A stretch of 64,000 nucleotides of DNA from the NCBI GenBank assembly GCA_045629925.1, contig JAZQSD010000091.1, forward strand, positions 547-64,546. The letters are read 5' to 3'. Positions within the stretch are counted from its first letter, which is position 1, and each line of letters starts with the position of its first letter. Positions 46,445 to 62,148 of the stretch are shown piece by piece. A program made the position numbers and the translations under genes. The notes beneath the pieces are model-generated. The model had not been told where the DNA came from, did not search any database, and saw nothing but the letters and a program-made list of their open reading frames with translations. The DNA comes from Eubacterium sp. GTDB lineage: Bacteria; Bacillota; Clostridia; Lachnospirales; Lachnospiraceae.

Positions 46445-47557
46445 TTACCCAAACAGAAATTCTTCTGTCGCAAAGCAAATCATATCCATCTTTTCTAATT
46501 TTACTGGATCTCGATAAAAAAGTTCCTTTCCGTTTACAAATGTTCCATTGGTAGAATTCAAATCTTCTATATAATAAGAACCTTCTTTTCGAAATATTCT
46601 GGCATGAATTCTGCTCACAGTATCAGCCTGAAGAATCCCCTGGGCCTTTTCCGTATCTTTTCCTATTACGAACACATCTCCTTCCAAAACAAAATTCTCT
46701 TCTTTTCCACTTCCTTGGTAAATTAATTTCCCATATTCCACTTCTTTGTTCGTTTTTAAGAAAACAGTTGGAGTTTCACGAACAATCGGTTCAGCAACCT
46801 GCTGACACCCCTGCAATTCTTTCAATATCTCCTCATAATCTTTTGACTTGGAAAAAACTTTCTTTTTCTTAATTTTTATGGTTTTCCTGTTCATGCGCCC
46901 CTTTTTCACACCGCGAGAAACATCCTCATCAACAATAGGCCAATCATCAGCATTCTCCGATATCGGCTGCATGGTTTCTGCTATTAAGCCTGATTCAGAT
47001 TCATTCTCCTCTTTAGACAAGGGCAAGATAATGCATCCCAAAAGTTCTTTTGCCGAACAACTTTCCTGAATACTCTTTTCATAAAAATCGTACCCCATCT
47101 TGACAGCATCCCTGTCTTTGTGATCTATCTTTGTAAGCAGATACTCCGCCAACAGTTGTATACCCATTCCTCCTTGGGTTTTCAATCCTGGAAGATAGCA
47201 AAATTTATACTTCTCATCATTTCTATCATAATATATCCATTCCGGAAGATAAGACACATTCTCACCATCCAGCATATAATCTTCTAACTGATAATTCATA
47301 TCATAAATATCTTCTATGATACGTCTTAATTTTGTTCTATCCATAGAAAACAATTCCATCATGGTTCCTAAAGATGTGGTTCCCGTAATGTCATACCAGT
47401 ACTCCAGTTTCCCATTGCTGATAATAATTTGCAATTCTAATAACCCCGGCACTTTATTATTCAACAACATTAGCAGTTCCGAATTCTCATACTGATATTC
47501 TGCATCTTTAATAATCATATAACTTCCTGTTAAGTTTCTAATATACTCTACCTTCAT
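46445..47557 (-). CDS. DUF6382-like N-terminal domain plus C-terminal FHA domain (Tad locus)
   Basis: IGK...VSRIHA...IEDLNSTNGTFVNG FHA signature; N-terminal ML..N..PGLL and YDITG. Confidence 0.82.
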   Translation of the reverse strand: MKVEYIRNLTGSYMIIKDAEYQYENSELLMLLNNKVPGLLELQIIISNGKLEYWYDITGTTSLGTMMELFSMDRTKLRRIIEDIYDMNYQLEDYMLDGENVSYLPEWIYYDRNDEKYKFCYLPGLKTQGGMGIQLLAEYLLTKIDHKDRDAVKMGYDFYEKSIQESCSAKELLGCIILPLSKEENESESGLIAETMQPISENADDWPIVDEDVSRGVKKGRMNRKTIKIKKKKVFSKSKDYEEILKELQGCQQVAEPIVRETPTVFLKTNKEVEYGKLIYQGSGKEENFVLEGDVFVIGKDTEKAQGILQADTVSRIHARIFRKEGSYYIEDLNSTNGTFVNGKELFYRDPVKLEKMDMICFATEEFLFG

Positions 47558-47580
47558 CCAAGTTCTCTCTTTGTCCTTTC

Positions 47581-47808
47581 TCAATTATTTATATCGCGGC
47601 CATACATTGCATTCACAGGATCTATCTCTTTTACTGCGACCTCTTGTTCCGCCAAGTCTATCACCTGATTGTGCAAACAAATTGCCAAGTGTAGAGCCCC
47701 TACGATTATCAAAATAACCAACGGCATGATCATTGATGCCTCCACCGTATACGATGCTCTCACTTTCCCAGAATATTTCCTCCGCCTCTTTCTATCACAA
47801 GTATCCAC
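47581..47808 (-). CDS. Short TadE-like minor pilin
   Basis: Basic leader, RA/SYTVE (E+5) and a hydrophobic helix. Confidence 0.7.
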   Translation of the reverse strand: MDTCDRKRRRKYSGKVRASYTVEASMIMPLVILIIVGALHLAICLHNQVIDLAEQEVAVKEIDPVNAMYGRDINN

Positions 47809-48254
47809 TACAACACACCCAGCCCAGCACCTTTCGTTTTTATAACCATAAACACCATATATCCCAACAAGTAAAAGACTATATTGGGAAGCAAGATTTC
47901 CCTGCTATTCCTGTTTAAAACACATATTACCAAAGCCATCCCTGCAGCCACCAAAGTACTAACAAAAAACACCACCAACGTATCTGCTAATCCTAACAAC
48001 CCACCTAGCGCCAAAAGCACCAAACCATCTCCACAGCCTATATGTTTTGGGAATATAAGGGATAGTATGACCAATACACTTCCTGGCAACAAACCAGCAA
48101 AAACATCTACTATTTTATATGCAGACACATTCAATAGCATATCCAGCATTGCTACTACAGCCATTCCAACAATCCAAATAATCCGAATCTGGCGTTCTCT
48201 TACATCCTCTATTGCAAGGATAACCAAAATAACAAATATCAATATCCACTTCAT
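47808..48254 (-). CDS. Prepilin peptidase (A24 family)
   Basis: ED...R.I and IGCGD aspartate motifs; hydrophobic; start moved to MKWIL. Confidence 0.78.
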   Translation of the reverse strand: MKWILIFVILVILAIEDVRERQIRIIWIVGMAVVAMLDMLLNVSAYKIVDVFAGLLPGSVLVILSLIFPKHIGCGDGLVLLALGGLLGLADTLVVFFVSTLVAAGMALVICVLNRNSREILLPNIVFYLLGYMVFMVIKTKGAGLGVL

Positions 48255-48255
48255 T

Positions 48256-49311
48256 TCAGTAACACTTTTGGCAAGGCGTTCGTCCCACAACATTTTTCTC
48301 AAGAACTCTTCTTATTGTTCTTTTTATACCACTGCAGTTCAAGGAATAATGATACTGGGTTCCGTAGTCAGTTACATATACTGTTTTCCCACTAGCATTT
48401 TCGGCGTTCATTATACAACCTTGACATTTATAGTAACGGCCCCCGTCTTTATTGCGCAGCGATCCCACCGATTGTTCAGAGACACTGACCAAGGACAAAT
48501 CAAGGTATGAGCAATGTACTCCACTGTGATAAACAGTTCCAAACGGAGCAATATACACCCATCTGTTATCGCCCGTTTGTCCACTACTCCGTCCTTTCCA
48601 GCGCCTTGCCGCTGCACTTTGGGATACCTCTAACACATCTTTTCCAAAGATATTCAAGGGCATTCTTATTGCATAATGAACAGTCAATCTAACATATTCA
48701 CCATCGCTTTCTCTGTCATTCATTTTAATACTTTGAAAACCACCCACAAATTCTTCATCCGTAGCCCCCTGTTTTTTTAACTCCTTTATCAGAATCTGTT
48801 TTCCCACTATTCCTTCAAGGATTTCATTTTCATTCATCAGCATTTCTGTCGCCAATGCAGATGCTGCATAGCTTAAAGCTTGATTCACCTTTATCTCTAC
48901 CGCCAATAGCTGAAATAGCCCCAGAAACAATACCAAAAAGAATATGATAAACGGAACAACAAAGGCCGCTTCCACAGTCATGGAACCTCTGCATCGGACA
49001 TGGAGCAGTGTTTTTGCAGAACTAGAGATAAAACCAGACGATTTTTTTGTGCGATGGGCTTTCGCACAACTAAAACAAATTAATTCATTTAAAGATTGGG
49101 TTATCTCTTTTTCTAAATTTAAGCAATATTTTGAGTGATGACTAATCAAATAATCATGTTGAGTATGCTTGAAACTCAAGCAATTCCTCCATTTGTAGAG
49201 AGAGTTTTTATTATCGTAATGTTGGGAAAGTTTTCTACTGTTTTTCAGTAGCTTGAAAGATAAACCTGATTTATATTTCTCTGTCATACAAAAACACTGC
49301 TCCATATCCAA
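48256..49311 (-). CDS. TadE-family minor pilin with long N-terminal leader and two C-terminal His/Cys motifs (start uncertain)
   Basis: RG/SMTVEAAFVVP class III signal with Gly at residue 109; YH....C..L and CxxC twice. Confidence 0.8.
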   Translation of the reverse strand: MDMEQCFCMTEKYKSGLSFKLLKNSRKLSQHYDNKNSLYKWRNCLSFKHTQHDYLISHHSKYCLNLEKEITQSLNELICFSCAKAHRTKKSSGFISSSAKTLLHVRCRGSMTVEAAFVVPFIIFFLVLFLGLFQLLAVEIKVNQALSYAASALATEMLMNENEILEGIVGKQILIKELKKQGATDEEFVGGFQSIKMNDRESDGEYVRLTVHYAIRMPLNIFGKDVLEVSQSAAARRWKGRSSGQTGDNRWVYIAPFGTVYHSGVHCSYLDLSLVSVSEQSVGSLRNKDGGRYYKCQGCIMNAENASGKTVYVTDYGTQYHYSLNCSGIKRTIRRVLEKNVVGRTPCQKCY

Positions 49312-49314
49312 TGC
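48991..49314 (-). other. 28-bp long-range inverted repeat (probable mRNA stem) enclosing the tadE 5' region
   Basis: Arms 49287-49314 and 48991-49018; 25 Watson-Crick plus 3 G-U pairs in the minus-strand transcript. Confidence 0.8.
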
Positions 49315-50717
49315 TATTCCTTTAAATAATTGGCCGAAAAAGGCTCCTTAAATTGATACCTGCTCACTTTTCCTCTTCCAATAGGCACAAAAGCAGAAAA
49401 CAGTGTATCGGCAGCGTAAGTTACTTGTCCATCTATCCTATACAGATGAGTATCCATCCTTGCTCCAGTATTTTTTTCTATCAAATCCATTGCCCTATAT
49501 GCCAAGACACTATCACTTTTTGACCACAGAAGAATCTGTAAATACTGTTGATAGTCATAGCCTTCCCGCTGTGATACAGAACGTTCTTTTCCGGCATTGG
49601 CTAATCCACCTAGATCGGTATTCCATTGTTCTTCTTTTTTTATCAGTGCTACATTATATCCATCAAGCAATAGCCGTATGTCTGATACAGACTCTGCATA
49701 TGCCCATGCAGCCGTAATTCCCGTTTTATACACAGGTATAAGTTCTGGCGACATAGTGGCAGCTGCCAGAGAAGTTGCCGCCGCAAGTATCAATTCCTGT
49801 TTTTCAACGCTACTTTTTAAATACTGCACATTCGAAACTTCTCTTATGACCAACAATTGGTTCAGTACACCTTGTAGATTTTTTCTGTCAGACTCTCGTC
49901 CGATTATTAAATATTCCATTTCATATGCAAGCGCCCCTTTATTTGTTGTCTTTGTATAGTCTGGAAAATATTGTCGCAAATACTGCCGAAACAATATCTT
50001 CTCTTTCCATGTATAATTTCCCAATTCATAGCAAATAGTTCCTTTCTGAATCGTTCGTTTACCAAGGGTACTATCTAGATCTAGCTCTTTTGGTGATATA
50101 TTCTCTTCTCCCACCAGCAATTCTAACAGTCCTTTTCGTTTCATATTGGTCACACAATCAATTGGATTTTCTTGCAGCACAAGCTCTTTTTGCGTCTCAT
50201 TAACCTCTACCTCATGCCCATTATCTTGACTCTTTTTTGTTGCAATTCCGTATAGCTCTTGAAGTTTTTCTTGTGTATAGTTGTTTTCTACAGCTTTTGA
50301 TGCCTGGTTGATAAAGGCCCATCCATTTTGATCTGTAACTAATCCATAGCCAGATATCACAACATCCTCTGCATGTATGCCAAACAGATTCCATGTAGAA
50401 ACAGAAATAGCTTCTGACTCGCCTCTGTACAGGTCAAGGTTCTCCGCCGAAAATATCTTCCCTCTTTCAGAAACCATATCTAAGCAGAGCTCTCTTTGTC
50501 CAAATCCTCCATCATACAGCAACAAACTATACTCGTCCCATAATTGTTTGTTATATTCAGACATAAGAGAATTTTTCATTATAATCGAATCAGTCTCCGC
50601 TCTTTGCTGCAACCCTTGCACTCTTGCAACCTCCAGGAACACAAATACTACCGACATTACAAAAATCAATATAAAAGCAAGAAAAATGGTTATACTGCCC
50701 GATACTTTTCTTTTCAC
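49314..50717 (-). CDS. Large pilin-like protein (DUF5702-like)
   Basis: SG/SITIF plus hydrophobic helix; YEMEYLI.G..SD..NL and WA.AES. Confidence 0.75.
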   Translation of the reverse strand: MKRKVSGSITIFLAFILIFVMSVVFVFLEVARVQGLQQRAETDSIIMKNSLMSEYNKQLWDEYSLLLYDGGFGQRELCLDMVSERGKIFSAENLDLYRGESEAISVSTWNLFGIHAEDVVISGYGLVTDQNGWAFINQASKAVENNYTQEKLQELYGIATKKSQDNGHEVEVNETQKELVLQENPIDCVTNMKRKGLLELLVGEENISPKELDLDSTLGKRTIQKGTICYELGNYTWKEKILFRQYLRQYFPDYTKTTNKGALAYEMEYLIIGRESDRKNLQGVLNQLLVIREVSNVQYLKSSVEKQELILAAATSLAAATMSPELIPVYKTGITAAWAYAESVSDIRLLLDGYNVALIKKEEQWNTDLGGLANAGKERSVSQREGYDYQQYLQILLWSKSDSVLAYRAMDLIEKNTGARMDTHLYRIDGQVTYAADTLFSAFVPIGRGKVSRYQFKEPFSANYLKE

Positions 50718-50881
50718 AATGTTCCTGCCTTTGATGAAATATTTGAAAACGCATTGTTTACCAATTCCGTTAATTGCTTTTTAAAAATCACTACCAAACC
50801 AATCAAAACCACTAAAACCAAAATAATTTCTACGACTCCGATTCCATCTTCTTCTCGAATAAATCGTCTTATTTCCCCCAT
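50714..50881 (-). CDS. Flp1-family major pilin (55 aa; not in ORF track)
   Basis: Manual translation MGEIRRFIREEDG/IGVVEIILVLVVLIGLVVIFKKQLTELVNNAFSNISSKAGTL; AGGAGG RBS; GTGA overlap with the next gene. Confidence 0.9.
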   Translation of the reverse strand: MGEIRRFIREEDGIGVVEIILVLVVLIGLVVIFKKQLTELVNNAFSNISSKAGTL

Positions 50882-50893
50882 AGTTCCCCCTCC

Positions 50894-52129
50894 TTAAAAA
50901 TTCTGTATCGCCGGATACATAACAGCGATTAATACCATTAAAAATAATAACAACATTGGAAACAGCAGCTTTGTGCCCGTTTCTTCTCCTTGTTTTCGAA
51001 CACTTCGTTTTTGGTCCTCCACTGCAATACCCGCTTCCACATCCAGCATCTCAACAATCTCTTTCGTTCCGTTTCTCATATTTTGCACAAGCAACGCCGA
51101 TAGTTTTCGGTACTGCGGAAGTCCCACTCTAACACCAAATTCTTCTATGGCAGATCTAATACTTACCCCCTCAGAGATCATCCTGTATGTAACCAGCATT
51201 TCTTCCAGATATAATGTTTTTTGCGCTTTCTTATCGTCTATATCTATCTGTTTTTGTAGATATTCTTTCACCATTCTTTCCCAAGCAGTTGTAATAGGCA
51301 TTCCCGCCCCCATCAGCAAAGATATCTGCGTTACCATATGTGGATATTCTTGTAGCAACATTTTTTCTCGTATCTTTTGTTGCTGTCTGTCAAATTGTTC
51401 CGATTGTTGACGAAGGCAAATGATTGCAACACCGCCTAACACTACAAGCACAAAAATGTTAGAATCTATCTTTTTTGACCAATGTATTTGTTCTCCCGCA
51501 ATCTCTTTCGGCAGAACAAATTTTTCCTGATCTCTTGTTTCTTTTTCTTCTTCTTGCACTACTTGAATGTACCGTTCCTCTCTGCTCTGTGTTATAGCAT
51601 CTTCAGGCTTTTTCACATTTACATAGCAGTTATATTCCACTTGTGTCTCTTGGCACAAAAAAGTAATCTCTAAAGCAACAAGTCGCCCTGATTCAGCCAC
51701 TGATTCAAGAGATACCGAGCCATCCTCCCAAACTATCAGCGGGGCATCACTGGTATATACGGCAGTTACCATCCCATCACAAAAACTGGACTGAAATACC
51801 AAGTCTTGCCAAACAGCATCTGCCGATTCATTTTCACCCAGATACGTTTGTTCAAACTCCAATATGGCTTTTTCTATCAATTCCTGGCATTGTTCCTCCG
51901 TAAGCTGCCTTGGAAACACAACCACATCAACATGCTGTTTTTCCCCGTTGTCAGTTCTTGCAACAAATGTCTCTTCATATATTTCCGACTGGACTGTTCC
52001 TCTATATATTCCATTTTGGATTTGATCATGGCTCTCTATCAGCTCTGCCGCAATAAACATAACCATCAAGAACACAATAGCCACTCCTGCAATCAACGCT
52101 TTTTTATTGTTATTCTTTTTTGATTTCAT
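50894..52129 (-). CDS. TadC-like (T2SS F family) membrane platform protein
   Basis: LLMGAGM, KQGEETGTKLLFPM; large extracytoplasmic N-terminal part. Confidence 0.8.
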   Translation of the reverse strand: MKSKKNNNKKALIAGVAIVFLMVMFIAAELIESHDQIQNGIYRGTVQSEIYEETFVARTDNGEKQHVDVVVFPRQLTEEQCQELIEKAILEFEQTYLGENESADAVWQDLVFQSSFCDGMVTAVYTSDAPLIVWEDGSVSLESVAESGRLVALEITFLCQETQVEYNCYVNVKKPEDAITQSREERYIQVVQEEEKETRDQEKFVLPKEIAGEQIHWSKKIDSNIFVLVVLGGVAIICLRQQSEQFDRQQQKIREKMLLQEYPHMVTQISLLMGAGMPITTAWERMVKEYLQKQIDIDDKKAQKTLYLEEMLVTYRMISEGVSIRSAIEEFGVRVGLPQYRKLSALLVQNMRNGTKEIVEMLDVEAGIAVEDQKRSVRKQGEETGTKLLFPMLLLFLMVLIAVMYPAIQNF

Positions 52130-52132
52130 TTA

Positions 52133-52843
52133 TCACGCACCTATCTTCATCATCCTTTTCGCTATAATCCATGCCATCAAATACATGGCAAGACAAATCG
52201 TCATAACGCATATGCCCACAGGCGTATGGTATAAAGGTTCTAAGAATTCCTTTGAACAAATTTTCAGATATCCAAGAATGGAAAATGGCAGCACATTCAT
52301 GATTGCAAGCTCCAATTTTCTAGATGCGATCGCCAACTGCACTTCTTCTTGTATTTGAAAATTCTGCCGAATCCTAGAAGCTGTCTGCCGCATAATAGCT
52401 GCCAGATTACCGCCACTTTTCCTGGCAAAATAAAACACTTCTGCAAATGTCTTTATCAGATCGGAATCGGTTTTTTGAGAAAAATCTAGCATCAACCTTT
52501 CCAACGGCTGATTAATCGCCACTCTCTGGTTCATATCTGCCAATGCACAACCATAGAAACTCCCTTTTCCAAACAACCGTTCCACTTCACATTGCATTTG
52601 TCTCCAGGCATTCTCCGCTGAGTATCCAGCTTCAAGAGCTCCCGCCGCAAAGAATAATCCCTCGCAAAACTGTTTTTCTAATTCATATTTGAATTTCTGT
52701 GCAGAAGCATCCCTGTATTCCCAAAGAAATAGCGGAAACACCAAAGCCACACTTAAAATTCCTGCCCAGGAGTCATAGAAAACCCAAGCCACAAGAAAGG
52801 TTACACAACCTGTCTTTCCTAACAGAGCACATTTTTCTCTCAT
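52133..52843 (-). CDS. TadB-like (T2SS F family) membrane protein
   Basis: LEAGYSAENA, KSGGNL and PLYHT..G motifs. Confidence 0.82.
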   Translation of the reverse strand: MREKCALLGKTGCVTFLVAWVFYDSWAGILSVALVFPLFLWEYRDASAQKFKYELEKQFCEGLFFAAGALEAGYSAENAWRQMQCEVERLFGKGSFYGCALADMNQRVAINQPLERLMLDFSQKTDSDLIKTFAEVFYFARKSGGNLAAIMRQTASRIRQNFQIQEEVQLAIASRKLELAIMNVLPFSILGYLKICSKEFLEPLYHTPVGICVMTICLAMYLMAWIIAKRMMKIGA

Positions 52844-54090
52844 GGTTTTCTCGATTCTACCGCTTCATACAGTTCTTGCTGTCCATATAGTTTCTCTAGC
52901 TCCTTGCCGAACCCTTTTTCTGTTATGCGATGCATGCGGGTCAATCTACCCTTTCGTTCCCAGGTTCTTTCACCTTGATCATATTCATATAGTGGCCGTA
53001 TATCTATCTGCCCCTCTGTCATCCCCAGAATTTCACACACCTGAAGCACTTTCCTACTTTTATTCTCCAAACGTCCCATGTGAATCAAAATATCAATCCC
53101 TGATGAAATCTGACTTCGAACTGCTTGTAGCGGAATTTCCAACCCCATAAGTACAAGTATCTCTAAGCGGCTCAACATATCCCGACAAGAATTCCCATGC
53201 CCCGTAGACATACTTCCGCTATGCCCTGTATTATTTGCCTGAAGCAATTCTATTGCCTCTGGCCCGCGAACTTCTCCAACGATAATTCTATCTGGCCGCA
53301 TTCTCAACGAAGTCCTTATCAAATCTCTGATTGTTATTGACGATGCTCCATTTAAATTGGCCTCTCTGGCTTCCAAACGCACAAGATTCTCCACTCCTTG
53401 CAATTGCAGTTCTGCAGAATCTTCTATCGTGATCACTCTTTCGCCATCAGGTATTGCCATAGAAAGTGCATTTAAAAAGGTTGTCTTTCCACTACCCGTT
53501 CCACCGGACACAAAGATGTTGTATCCAGCCCGCACTATTAATTCCAAAAATTGTTTCAACTCCTGTGAAATCGTTCCCATTTCCACCAATTTCCCTAAGG
53601 ACATATAGCTCCTGCCAAACTTTCGAACAGTGACACAATACCCCTCAACAGATGCTGGTGGCGCAACAATATTCACACGAGATCCATCGCTCAAACGGGT
53701 ATCCACAATTGGCTCTGCCTCACTGATAGACTTGTTCCCCAGTGCAGCAATTTGCCGCACTACATTTTCCAGCATATCTTCCGAAGAAAAAACCTTATCC
53801 CACCGATGCAATGCACCTTTTTTTTCATAAAATATATTCTTATGGCCATTTACCATGATTTCTGTTACATCCTGTTGCTCAAGCAATTCCTGCAGCACAT
53901 CCAGTTTTCGAAAAGAATTAAACAACTGCACTTGTATCCTTTGCCGCTGCTCCAATGTTAGCAAGTGTTTTTCAGAAAAGCTTTTTATGTGCCGTTGTAT
54001 TGCATCCCGCAACACTTCATCTGACACATCCTTCTCCGCATCAAGATCCTCTAAAATCTGATTCCTGATCAATTCAATCCAATCATTCAC
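52840..54090 (-). CDS. cpaF: CpaF/TadA pilus assembly ATPase
   Basis: VTEIMVNG, SGGTGSGKTT, IEDSAEL, LRMRPDRIIVGEVRG and NTGH motifs. Confidence 0.93.
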   Translation of the reverse strand: MNDWIELIRNQILEDLDAEKDVSDEVLRDAIQRHIKSFSEKHLLTLEQRQRIQVQLFNSFRKLDVLQELLEQQDVTEIMVNGHKNIFYEKKGALHRWDKVFSSEDMLENVVRQIAALGNKSISEAEPIVDTRLSDGSRVNIVAPPASVEGYCVTVRKFGRSYMSLGKLVEMGTISQELKQFLELIVRAGYNIFVSGGTGSGKTTFLNALSMAIPDGERVITIEDSAELQLQGVENLVRLEAREANLNGASSITIRDLIRTSLRMRPDRIIVGEVRGPEAIELLQANNTGHSGSMSTGHGNSCRDMLSRLEILVLMGLEIPLQAVRSQISSGIDILIHMGRLENKSRKVLQVCEILGMTEGQIDIRPLYEYDQGERTWERKGRLTRMHRITEKGFGKELEKLYGQQELYEAVESRKP

Positions 54091-62096: not shown

Positions 62097-62148
62097 AACC
62101 CACATAACAAACACTGTCGACGTGTGTTTGTTATGTGGGTTGTTTTTT
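62097..62148 (+). terminator. Terminator after the regulator gene
   Basis: 18-bp stem AACCCACATAACAAACAC/GTGTTTGTTATGTGGGTT followed by GTTTTTT. Confidence 0.8.

Follow-up and report, generated by a model that had tools for sequence, protein, structure and literature searches.

A long-range RNA helix occupies the 5' end of a TadE-like pseudopilin gene in a 64-kb stretch of DNA from a Eubacterium sp. of the Lachnospiraceae (assembly GCA_045629925.1, contig JAZQSD010000091.1, positions 547 to 64,546), which was analysed over its whole length of 64,000 nucleotides (nt) and is called the window here. The helix sits on the minus strand within a Gram-positive Tad/Flp operon and is apparently a real, undescribed translational control element. 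Sequence comparison across the family argues that it is maintained by selection on pairing in RNA. We consider it probable that it acts in cis on the mRNA, locking the translation-initiation region of the pseudopilin gene, and that it is opened only by ribosomes; that the helix would limit translation, and the route by which it would be opened, we infer from the anatomy of the orthologous loci. A scan of positions 47500-51000 against Rfam gave no match at E ≤ 1, and no description of the element was found in the literature on Tad pili in Lachnospiraceae, on DUF5702, on invertons and pilin genes, or on long-range sequestration of ribosome binding sites (RBS) and prepilins.

The minus-strand arms of the helix (49314-49287 and 49018-48991) form 28 contiguous base pairs (bp) if G·U pairs are allowed and enclose a loop of 268 nt; three further pairs follow past a single mismatch, and the duplex energy amounts to -49 kcal/mol. 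All non-Watson-Crick positions are U·G or G·U on the minus (mRNA) strand, so that the sequence confirms the pairing, the loop and the wobbles as a first-pass annotation of the same DNA had described them. An inverted-repeat search delimits the arms as 48991-49016 and 49289-49314 (26 nt, 92% Watson-Crick), and this is the strongest inverted repeat of the whole 64 kb. Folding of a 366-nt RNA gave z = -6.9 relative to dinucleotide shuffles, with the long-range helix present in both the minimum-free-energy and the centroid structures. The first base of the helix, G 49314, is also the last base of the stop codon TAG (49316-49314) of the upstream gene, which encodes a DUF5702 protein. The in-frame codons TTG 49311, ATG 49305 and ATG 49287 lie inside the 5' arm or at its end, the 3' arm stops 6 nt short of the Gly-Ser codons of the prepilin cleavage site (GGT 48987-48985, TCC 48984-48982), and the frame is uninterrupted from 49311 into the mature part, which gives a leader of 109 codons. 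The coordinates thus agree with the earlier description of a stem that starts at the upstream stop, covers the UUG and AUG starts and ends just before the cleavage codons, as well as with its stop-free frame and 109-residue leader. The additional GGAA/UUCC pairing proposed there, over the Shine-Dalgarno (SD)-like AAGGAA, is absent from the minimum-free-energy fold and would need an asymmetric internal loop. A promoter and terminator scan around the element produced nothing exceeding shuffle expectation.

The evidence for selection on pairing comes from orthologous loci. Among 546 relatives of the pseudopilin protein in species-representative genomes, the best 80 loci of the 546 were analysed, and 69 of the 80 contain a recognisable cleavage motif. 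A helix is present at the equivalent place in 61 of these 69, and the 61 carriers together with the window make up the family sample of 62 loci, to which the counts below refer unless stated otherwise. Throughout this sample the top inverted repeat of the upstream kilobase is the helix, its 3' arm stopping 5-25 nt short of the Ser+1 codon and its 5' arm lying 44-260 nt further upstream. Its size is narrowly distributed (median 26 bp, range 19-31 bp, at least 20 bp in 61 of 62 loci), with a median energy of -42.8 kcal/mol and very few bulges, and the arm sequences vary between genera. When RNAalifold was applied to a plain MAFFT alignment of the element (A2), it called a single helix of 23 pairs, 21 of which display compensatory double changes. 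Pairing cells make up 96.7% of this helix; shuffling the partners lowers this share to 75.8%, and sliding them by 1-3 columns to 36-58%. The covariation score of 0.739 compares with 0.326 and was attained by none of 500 shuffles. The undescribed cis-acting long-range RNA stem, which had been proposed from the window alone, is therefore corroborated by covariation among Lachnospiraceae orthologues.

The mismatches point in the same direction, since they are strongly biased toward the pairs that RNA tolerates. Non-Watson-Crick cells comprise 168 G·U on the sense strand and 32 A·C, a combination that could wobble only if the opposite strand were the RNA; when only one locus per arm cluster is counted, the ratio is 87:9, with G·U exceeding A·C in 27 clusters and the reverse in one. 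Within the clade to which the window belongs, all variable helix positions change via wobble intermediates. Most of the A·C counts have a single source, a mid-helix A·C mismatch at A2 columns 25/388 (context ...AUUACAGUGC / GCACUGCAAU...) that is kept by a clade comprising L008-L016, L019, L023, L024, L028 and others; this clade-specific A·C may be a conserved internal mismatch with a function.

As the 62 loci had been chosen for having the repeat, a second Lachnospiraceae sample was taken without regard to structure. It consists of 31 genera that have a placeable cleavage motif and are negative with a covariance model, R1, and a helix score of 15 was used as threshold. A helix of 16-37 bp at the equivalent position was found in 26 of the 31, shuffled controls peaking at 12.5, and the ratio of G·U to A·C in this sample is 84:5. 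R1 itself matches 28 of 150 Lachnospiraceae genera, each time as a single copy abutting or overlapping the pseudopilin gene. It was built from short-loop members only and misses the long-loop variant of the window itself (12.4 bits, E 0.8), and the tally of 28 of 150 therefore understates the distribution. The pseudopilin with its Cys-rich C-terminus is present in 138 of the 150 genera (one genome each), whereas the same protein query matched 9 of 9 Lachnospiraceae and only 1 of about 290 other Clostridia genomes; because of this distribution, gene and helix look like a signature of the family Lachnospiraceae.

It is the content of the arms that connects the helix with translation. In A2, invariance is confined to two columns of the 5' arm, the TG of a G/AUG codon, which occurs in paired form in 61 of 62 loci (GUG in 52, AUG in 9). 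This codon is in the frame of the gene in 55 of 62 loci; in about 52 it leads into a full-length open reading frame (ORF) of 280-330 codons. The SD is located 4-20 nt upstream of the G/AUG, within the arm or directly ahead of it, with a median pairing energy to the 16S tail of about -16 kcal/mol (-16.1), and an equivalent SD and start anatomy is seen in 16 of the 26 helices of the second sample. The 3' arm consists of an anti-start and an anti-SD (for example ...CAUCU...CACCUCCUU) and encodes the leader residues from about -12 to -3, which is why a conserved leader peptide, AK(A/T)LQC.. or KETPLCT, is found there. No stop interrupts the gene frame anywhere in the element at 54 of 62 loci, as opposed to 10 and 5 loci for the other two frames and 4-8 for those of the opposite strand; per element there are 0.26 stops in the gene frame versus 2.2 and 2.9 in the others. 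This scarcity indicates that translation runs from the 5' arm through the loop, and, judged from these counts, the leader frame is under selection to stay open. Finally, in 47 of 62 loci the stop of a long upstream ORF falls somewhere from 31 nt ahead of the 5' arm to 10 nt within it.

The window's clade (window, L005-L007, L084, L086, L088, and L090) keeps the helix core GAGCAGUGUUUUUGUA and is a long-loop variant, with loops of 123-333 nt that reach at least 215 nt in all members except L006 and L007. The SD before the conserved GUG has decayed in this clade (-3 to -7 kcal/mol; -4.1 in the window), and the GUG opens only a mini-ORF of 5-10 codons, being out of the gene frame in the window, L006, and L007. 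An in-frame ATG (in the window also a TTG) lies in the arm of the window, L084, and L086, 2-9 nt past the upstream stop, and the frame of about 100 codons through the AT-rich loop is open in these three, the mature proteins of which are only about 46% identical; such a frame is unlikely to have stayed open by chance. In-frame loop stops are present in L005, L088, and L090, where the called starts lie inside the loop and have no SD. Initiation at TTG 49311 or ATG 49305, which follow the upstream stop at 2-8 nt, would in the window's clade most likely depend on termination-reinitiation. The mini-ORF of the clade begins with GUG-UUU-UUG, whose five consecutive U could let the ribosome slip by +1 and so enter the main frame; this candidate frameshift was dropped, as in-frame arm starts are available upstream and three clade members have loop stops anyway. 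A local hairpin in the loop of the window, GUGCGA...UCGCAC, is identical in L084 and L086 and hence offers no covariation evidence.

The mechanism that we favour can be outlined as follows. On the polycistronic Tad transcript, the 5' arm with its SD and start would emerge right behind the DUF5702 stop codon, and the 3' arm, 50-270 nt downstream and placed in leader codons that the A24 peptidase would later remove, would serve as the complementary anti-RBS. Once formed, a helix of about 26 bp and about -43 kcal/mol should not be able to open unaided. Given that its energy far exceeds that of SD-16S pairing and that the gene is kept in so many genera, opening would have to be active. One route would be translational coupling, in which a ribosome terminating on DUF5702 melts the foot of the helix; in the window this route would be obligatory, because the stop codon is part of that foot. 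The second route would be delayed folding, with a ribosome loading on the nascent RNA before the 3' arm, 50-270 nt away, has been transcribed. Ribosomes in the loop or on the 3' arm would then hold the site open for their followers, whereas a gap in the ribosome traffic would let the helix shut irreversibly. The outcome would be a small, metered output of a minor pilin, tied to expression of the upstream genes. An RBS-sequestering switch opened by upstream ribosomes had been among the first-pass suggestions; the sequestration it assumed is what best fits the anatomy of SD, G/AUG and upstream stop, and the gating is at present deduced from that anatomy.

Several observations weigh against this interpretation. 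Helices of 23-31 bp much exceed the length required to occlude an RBS. At 15 of 62 loci, a gap of 43-101 nt separates the helix from the end of the nearest long ORF upstream, and direct coupling can therefore not be universal. At about one fifth of the loci the arm start opens a short ORF only, so that the main ORF must start in the uncovered loop; these include L005, L088, and L090 from the window's clade as well as L104, L105, L111, L112, L117, and L119, and the same split layout, with a short ORF from the arm and the main start in the loop, appears in about 8 of the 26 second-sample loci. The window's own clade combines a weak SD with a family GUG that, in the window, is out of frame. Lastly, a CU-rich motif conserved in the loop has no role in a model of RBS occlusion. 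That the helix is so long, and that it is retained at loci whose start has shifted to the loop, hints at an additional or alternative reader of double-stranded RNA.

Such a reader could be RNase III or another enzyme specific for double-stranded RNA, which would cut the helix on both strands. It would separate the proximal genes (ATPase, TadB/C, Flp, DUF5702) from the distal ones (pseudopilin, peptidase, small TadE, FHA) and also destroy pseudopilin message that is not being translated. RNase III has a length requirement of about two helical turns, or approximately 20 bp, and the helices, with 61 of 62 at or above that size, a narrow range and few bulges, match it and are longer than occlusion would require. 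An RNase III gene is encoded in this genome (PF14622, 168.6 bits), and retention of the helix even where the main start lies in the loop speaks for a processing site. However, processing by itself explains neither the SD and invariant start at a fixed place in the 5' arm nor the open leader frame. We regard it as a minority possibility that the element is primarily a processing site, although cleavage and RBS occlusion may act together.

The CU-rich motif raises the question of a factor-controlled switch, in which a protein, a small RNA or Rho, binding the single-stranded, G-poor loop and above all this motif, would open the helix or terminate transcription of an untranslated leader. With the consensus AAA-NCUCUCYC (an A-run followed by CUCUCUC or CUCUCCC), the motif is present in 55 of 62 loops and is nearly invariant in its nucleotides; third codon positions are kept, and the first position and the amino acid (S, T, P, A) vary. 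UC repeats are the classical ligand of the primary binding site of Rho, Rho is encoded in this genome, and C exceeds G in the loops (20% versus 13%). The overall loop composition (A 40%, C 20%, G 13%, T 27%, compared with 27% G in the downstream coding sequence) fits an unstructured spacer or a Rho-loading region. Rho, an RNA-binding protein or a small RNA is thus a possible ligand of the motif. On the other hand, it is rarer in distant genera, occurring in only 7 of the 26 second-sample helices, and is therefore not needed to keep the helix. When the motif was paired computationally with each arm and with the flanks on the SD and 3' sides, the duplex energies were no better than those of cross-locus or shuffled-motif controls, so that no partner sequence in cis was found, nor was a candidate factor identified. 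As the motif always stands in one reading frame (Ser-Leu), it may also act at the level of the peptide. A switch of this type appears improbable to us as the main explanation.

A broader proposal combines elements of these views, namely that the leader is an RNA device, a translated spacer between RBS and anti-RBS that works as a one-way "translation timer" read by ribosomes, by RNase III and perhaps by Rho or a CU-motif factor. The need to span this spacer would account for a leader several times the length of those in other pilins. The device would set the number of minor pilins made per transcript and thereby control the initiation of Tad pili in major gut commensals. We offer it as a speculation that is, on balance, doubtful.

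The remaining alternatives fare much worse. An invertible DNA segment (inverton) turning the pseudopilin gene on and off was suggested by the first-pass annotation as a less likely option, and a 26-28-bp inverted repeat around some 270 bp at the 5' end of a gene for a surface structure has indeed the usual look of an inverton. Yet the mismatches are strand-asymmetric, in the full sample as well as after clustering, unlike those of DNA recombination sites, and from one genus to the next the arms vary freely in sequence, which is expected of a structure but not of a recombinase site. The orientation of the loop is constant in 62 assemblies (frame open in 54 of 62; CU motif sense in 52 versus antisense in 10), and contigs of four gut metagenomes, at low depth, span both arms in the reference orientation only and contain no inverted joints. 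No invertase was present among the Pfam-annotated neighbours, distant invertases not having been searched for. Inversion is accordingly very improbable. Hardly more credible is the suggestion that the helix is a bridge bringing the upstream stop next to AUG 48981 for re-initiation, which would yield a leaderless pseudopilin: in the window AGAGG does stand 4 nt before this AUG, immediately 3' of the helix, but no more than 6 of 62 loci have ATG as codon +2, although the helix is near-universal, and the leader frame is selected to stay open. That the element is a miniature inverted-repeat transposable element inserted between two genes, as its terminal inverted repeats around an AT-rich interior might suggest, can practically be dismissed, since it is single-copy in the 1.75-Mb window assembly (89% complete) and occurs once per genome, always at the pseudopilin gene, in 28 of 28 R1-positive genera, with arms that covary and an interior that is coding.

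The genes around the helix (Table 1) follow the order T2SSE ATPase, two T2SSF, Flp-like ORF, DUF5702, TadE-like pseudopilin, A24 peptidase, a 75-residue TadE, and DUF6382-FHA, the peptidase gene overlapping the 3' end of the pseudopilin gene. NCBI lists the orthologues of the pseudopilin under the name "TadE/TadG family type IV pilus assembly protein". The window protein contains the class III motif RG|SMTVEAAFVVP, with the PF01478 gene adjacent, and in the pseudopilin protein alignment (A1) S108, T110, and E112 are invariant or nearly so. It has the features of a class III signal peptide, i.e., G/A at -1, a hydrophobic segment, Glu at +5, and an A24 peptidase in the locus. Class III signal leaders are usually short, under about 30 residues, whereas the leader comprises 105-109 residues in the window according to the predicted starts and about 35-70 residues in most orthologues if translation starts in the 5' arm.

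The C-terminal half of the pseudopilin (48256-48570, minus strand) is rich in Cys and His and contains two repeated modules, Y-H...C...C and Y-H...C...C-x2-C, the invariant residues of which in A1 are Y259, H260, C265, and C294 for the first and Y318, H319, C324, C345, and C348 for the second. Pfam gave no match for this Cys/His-rich part, which, from its residue pattern, looks like a metal-binding tip domain. Farther upstream in the operon, the 55-residue ORF matches the Flp1_like (Pfam) genes of L084, L088, and L090 in position and size and is probably the major Flp pilin. Elsewhere in the window, a perfect 18-bp hairpin with a 9-nt loop at 62097-62141, the only other perfect inverted repeat of such length, may be a terminator or an operator.

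Table 1. Features of the pseudopilin locus and its RNA element, in positions of the window.
Feature	Coordinates	Strand	Basis and remarks
T2SSE ATPase	52840-54090	-	Gene order of the operon
Flp-like pilin ORF, 55 residues	50714-50881	-	Between tadC and DUF5702
DUF5702 gene, upstream of the helix	49314-50717	-	Pfam PF18960, E 1.8e-72; stop TAG 49316-49314
SD-like AAGGAA	49317-49322	-	Sequence; 5 nt upstream of TTG 49311; weak compared with AGGAGG/AGGUG of most orthologues
5' arm, 28 nt	49287-49314	-	Repeat and alignment A2 columns 14-37; holds the family-conserved GUG 49297-49295, out of frame here
Eight-codon mini-ORF, conserved GUG to TAA	49271-49297	-	Sequence
Loop, 268 nt	49019-49286	-	Sequence; stop-free in the gene frame, A-rich, G-poor; encodes most of the 109-residue leader
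Loop motif, A-run then CUCUCUCU	49197-49209	-	Nearly invariant columns in A2, A3, A5
3' arm, 28 nt	48991-49018	-	A2 columns 376-399; encodes leader residues AKTLLHVRC just before the cleavage site
Prepilin cleavage motif codons G|SMTVE (Gly -1, Ser +1, Glu +5)	48970-48987	-	Translation
TadE-like pseudopilin gene	48256-49311	-	351 codons if started at TTG 49311; mature part about 242 residues
A24 prepilin peptidase gene	47808-48302	-	Pfam PF01478, E 1.9e-5, 25.5 bits, just under the 26.5-bit Pfam cut-off

The working principle that the favoured interpretation invokes, i.e., long-distance occlusion of an RBS and its ribosome-dependent unmasking, is already known from other systems. In the RNA phages MS2 and Qbeta, the Min Jou interaction couples translation of the replicase to that of the coat gene, and in the maturation (A-protein) gene a distant complement closes the SD, which limits translation to nascent RNA ("delayed RNA folding"). 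The Qbeta case is treated in PMC2978339. The pseudopilin element resembles these phage RNAs in that the complement closing the RBS is tens to hundreds of nucleotides distant, and opening by ribosome passage or ahead of synthesis of the partner strand, with a small metered output, would be a further likeness. It differs from them in the position of the complement, which here lies downstream, inside the gene's own discarded prepilin leader, and in a far longer helix (about 26 bp) that belongs to a bacterial operon and is conserved across a whole family.

A masked RBS and an adjacent upstream stop are also known from coupled cistrons such as rpmI-rplT in the E. coli IF3 operon and those of the atp and gal operons, and unmasking by a terminating ribosome would extend the similarity. 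The structures in those operons are either short and local or pseudoknots, however, and none is a helix of at least two turns around a translated leader of about 100 nt or is tied to a class III signal peptide. With the RNase III sites of the phage T7 intercistronic regions, the lambda N leader and E. coli adhE, which govern translation or the stability of operon segments, the element shares a long, nearly perfect duplex at a cistron boundary that includes an RBS; in adhE cleavage activates translation, whereas the double cut predicted here would part the start codon from the rest of the gene. Like the cyclic di-GMP riboswitches that precede type IV and Tad pilus genes in Clostridia, it is a cis-acting RNA at pilus genes of Firmicutes, but it has neither an Rfam match nor an aptamer-like core, one helix and a short CU motif being what is conserved. 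What seems to be new is the placement of an anti-RBS inside a discarded prepilin leader, with very long leaders as the result, and the conservation of a helix of at least two turns at a single gene throughout a family.

Tad pili are thought to be organelles of colonisation and adhesion, and the Lachnospiraceae, which include Roseburia, Agathobacter, and Eubacterium among others, are dominant butyrate producers of the gut. To our knowledge, nothing is known about the regulation of Tad pili in this family. The element described here is a structured cis-regulatory RNA not represented in Rfam, and its helix, being easy to mutate, would give a tangible point of access to pilus assembly. It could also explain why the class III leaders of this family are abnormally long, since they may be kept for their RNA and not for the peptide they encode.

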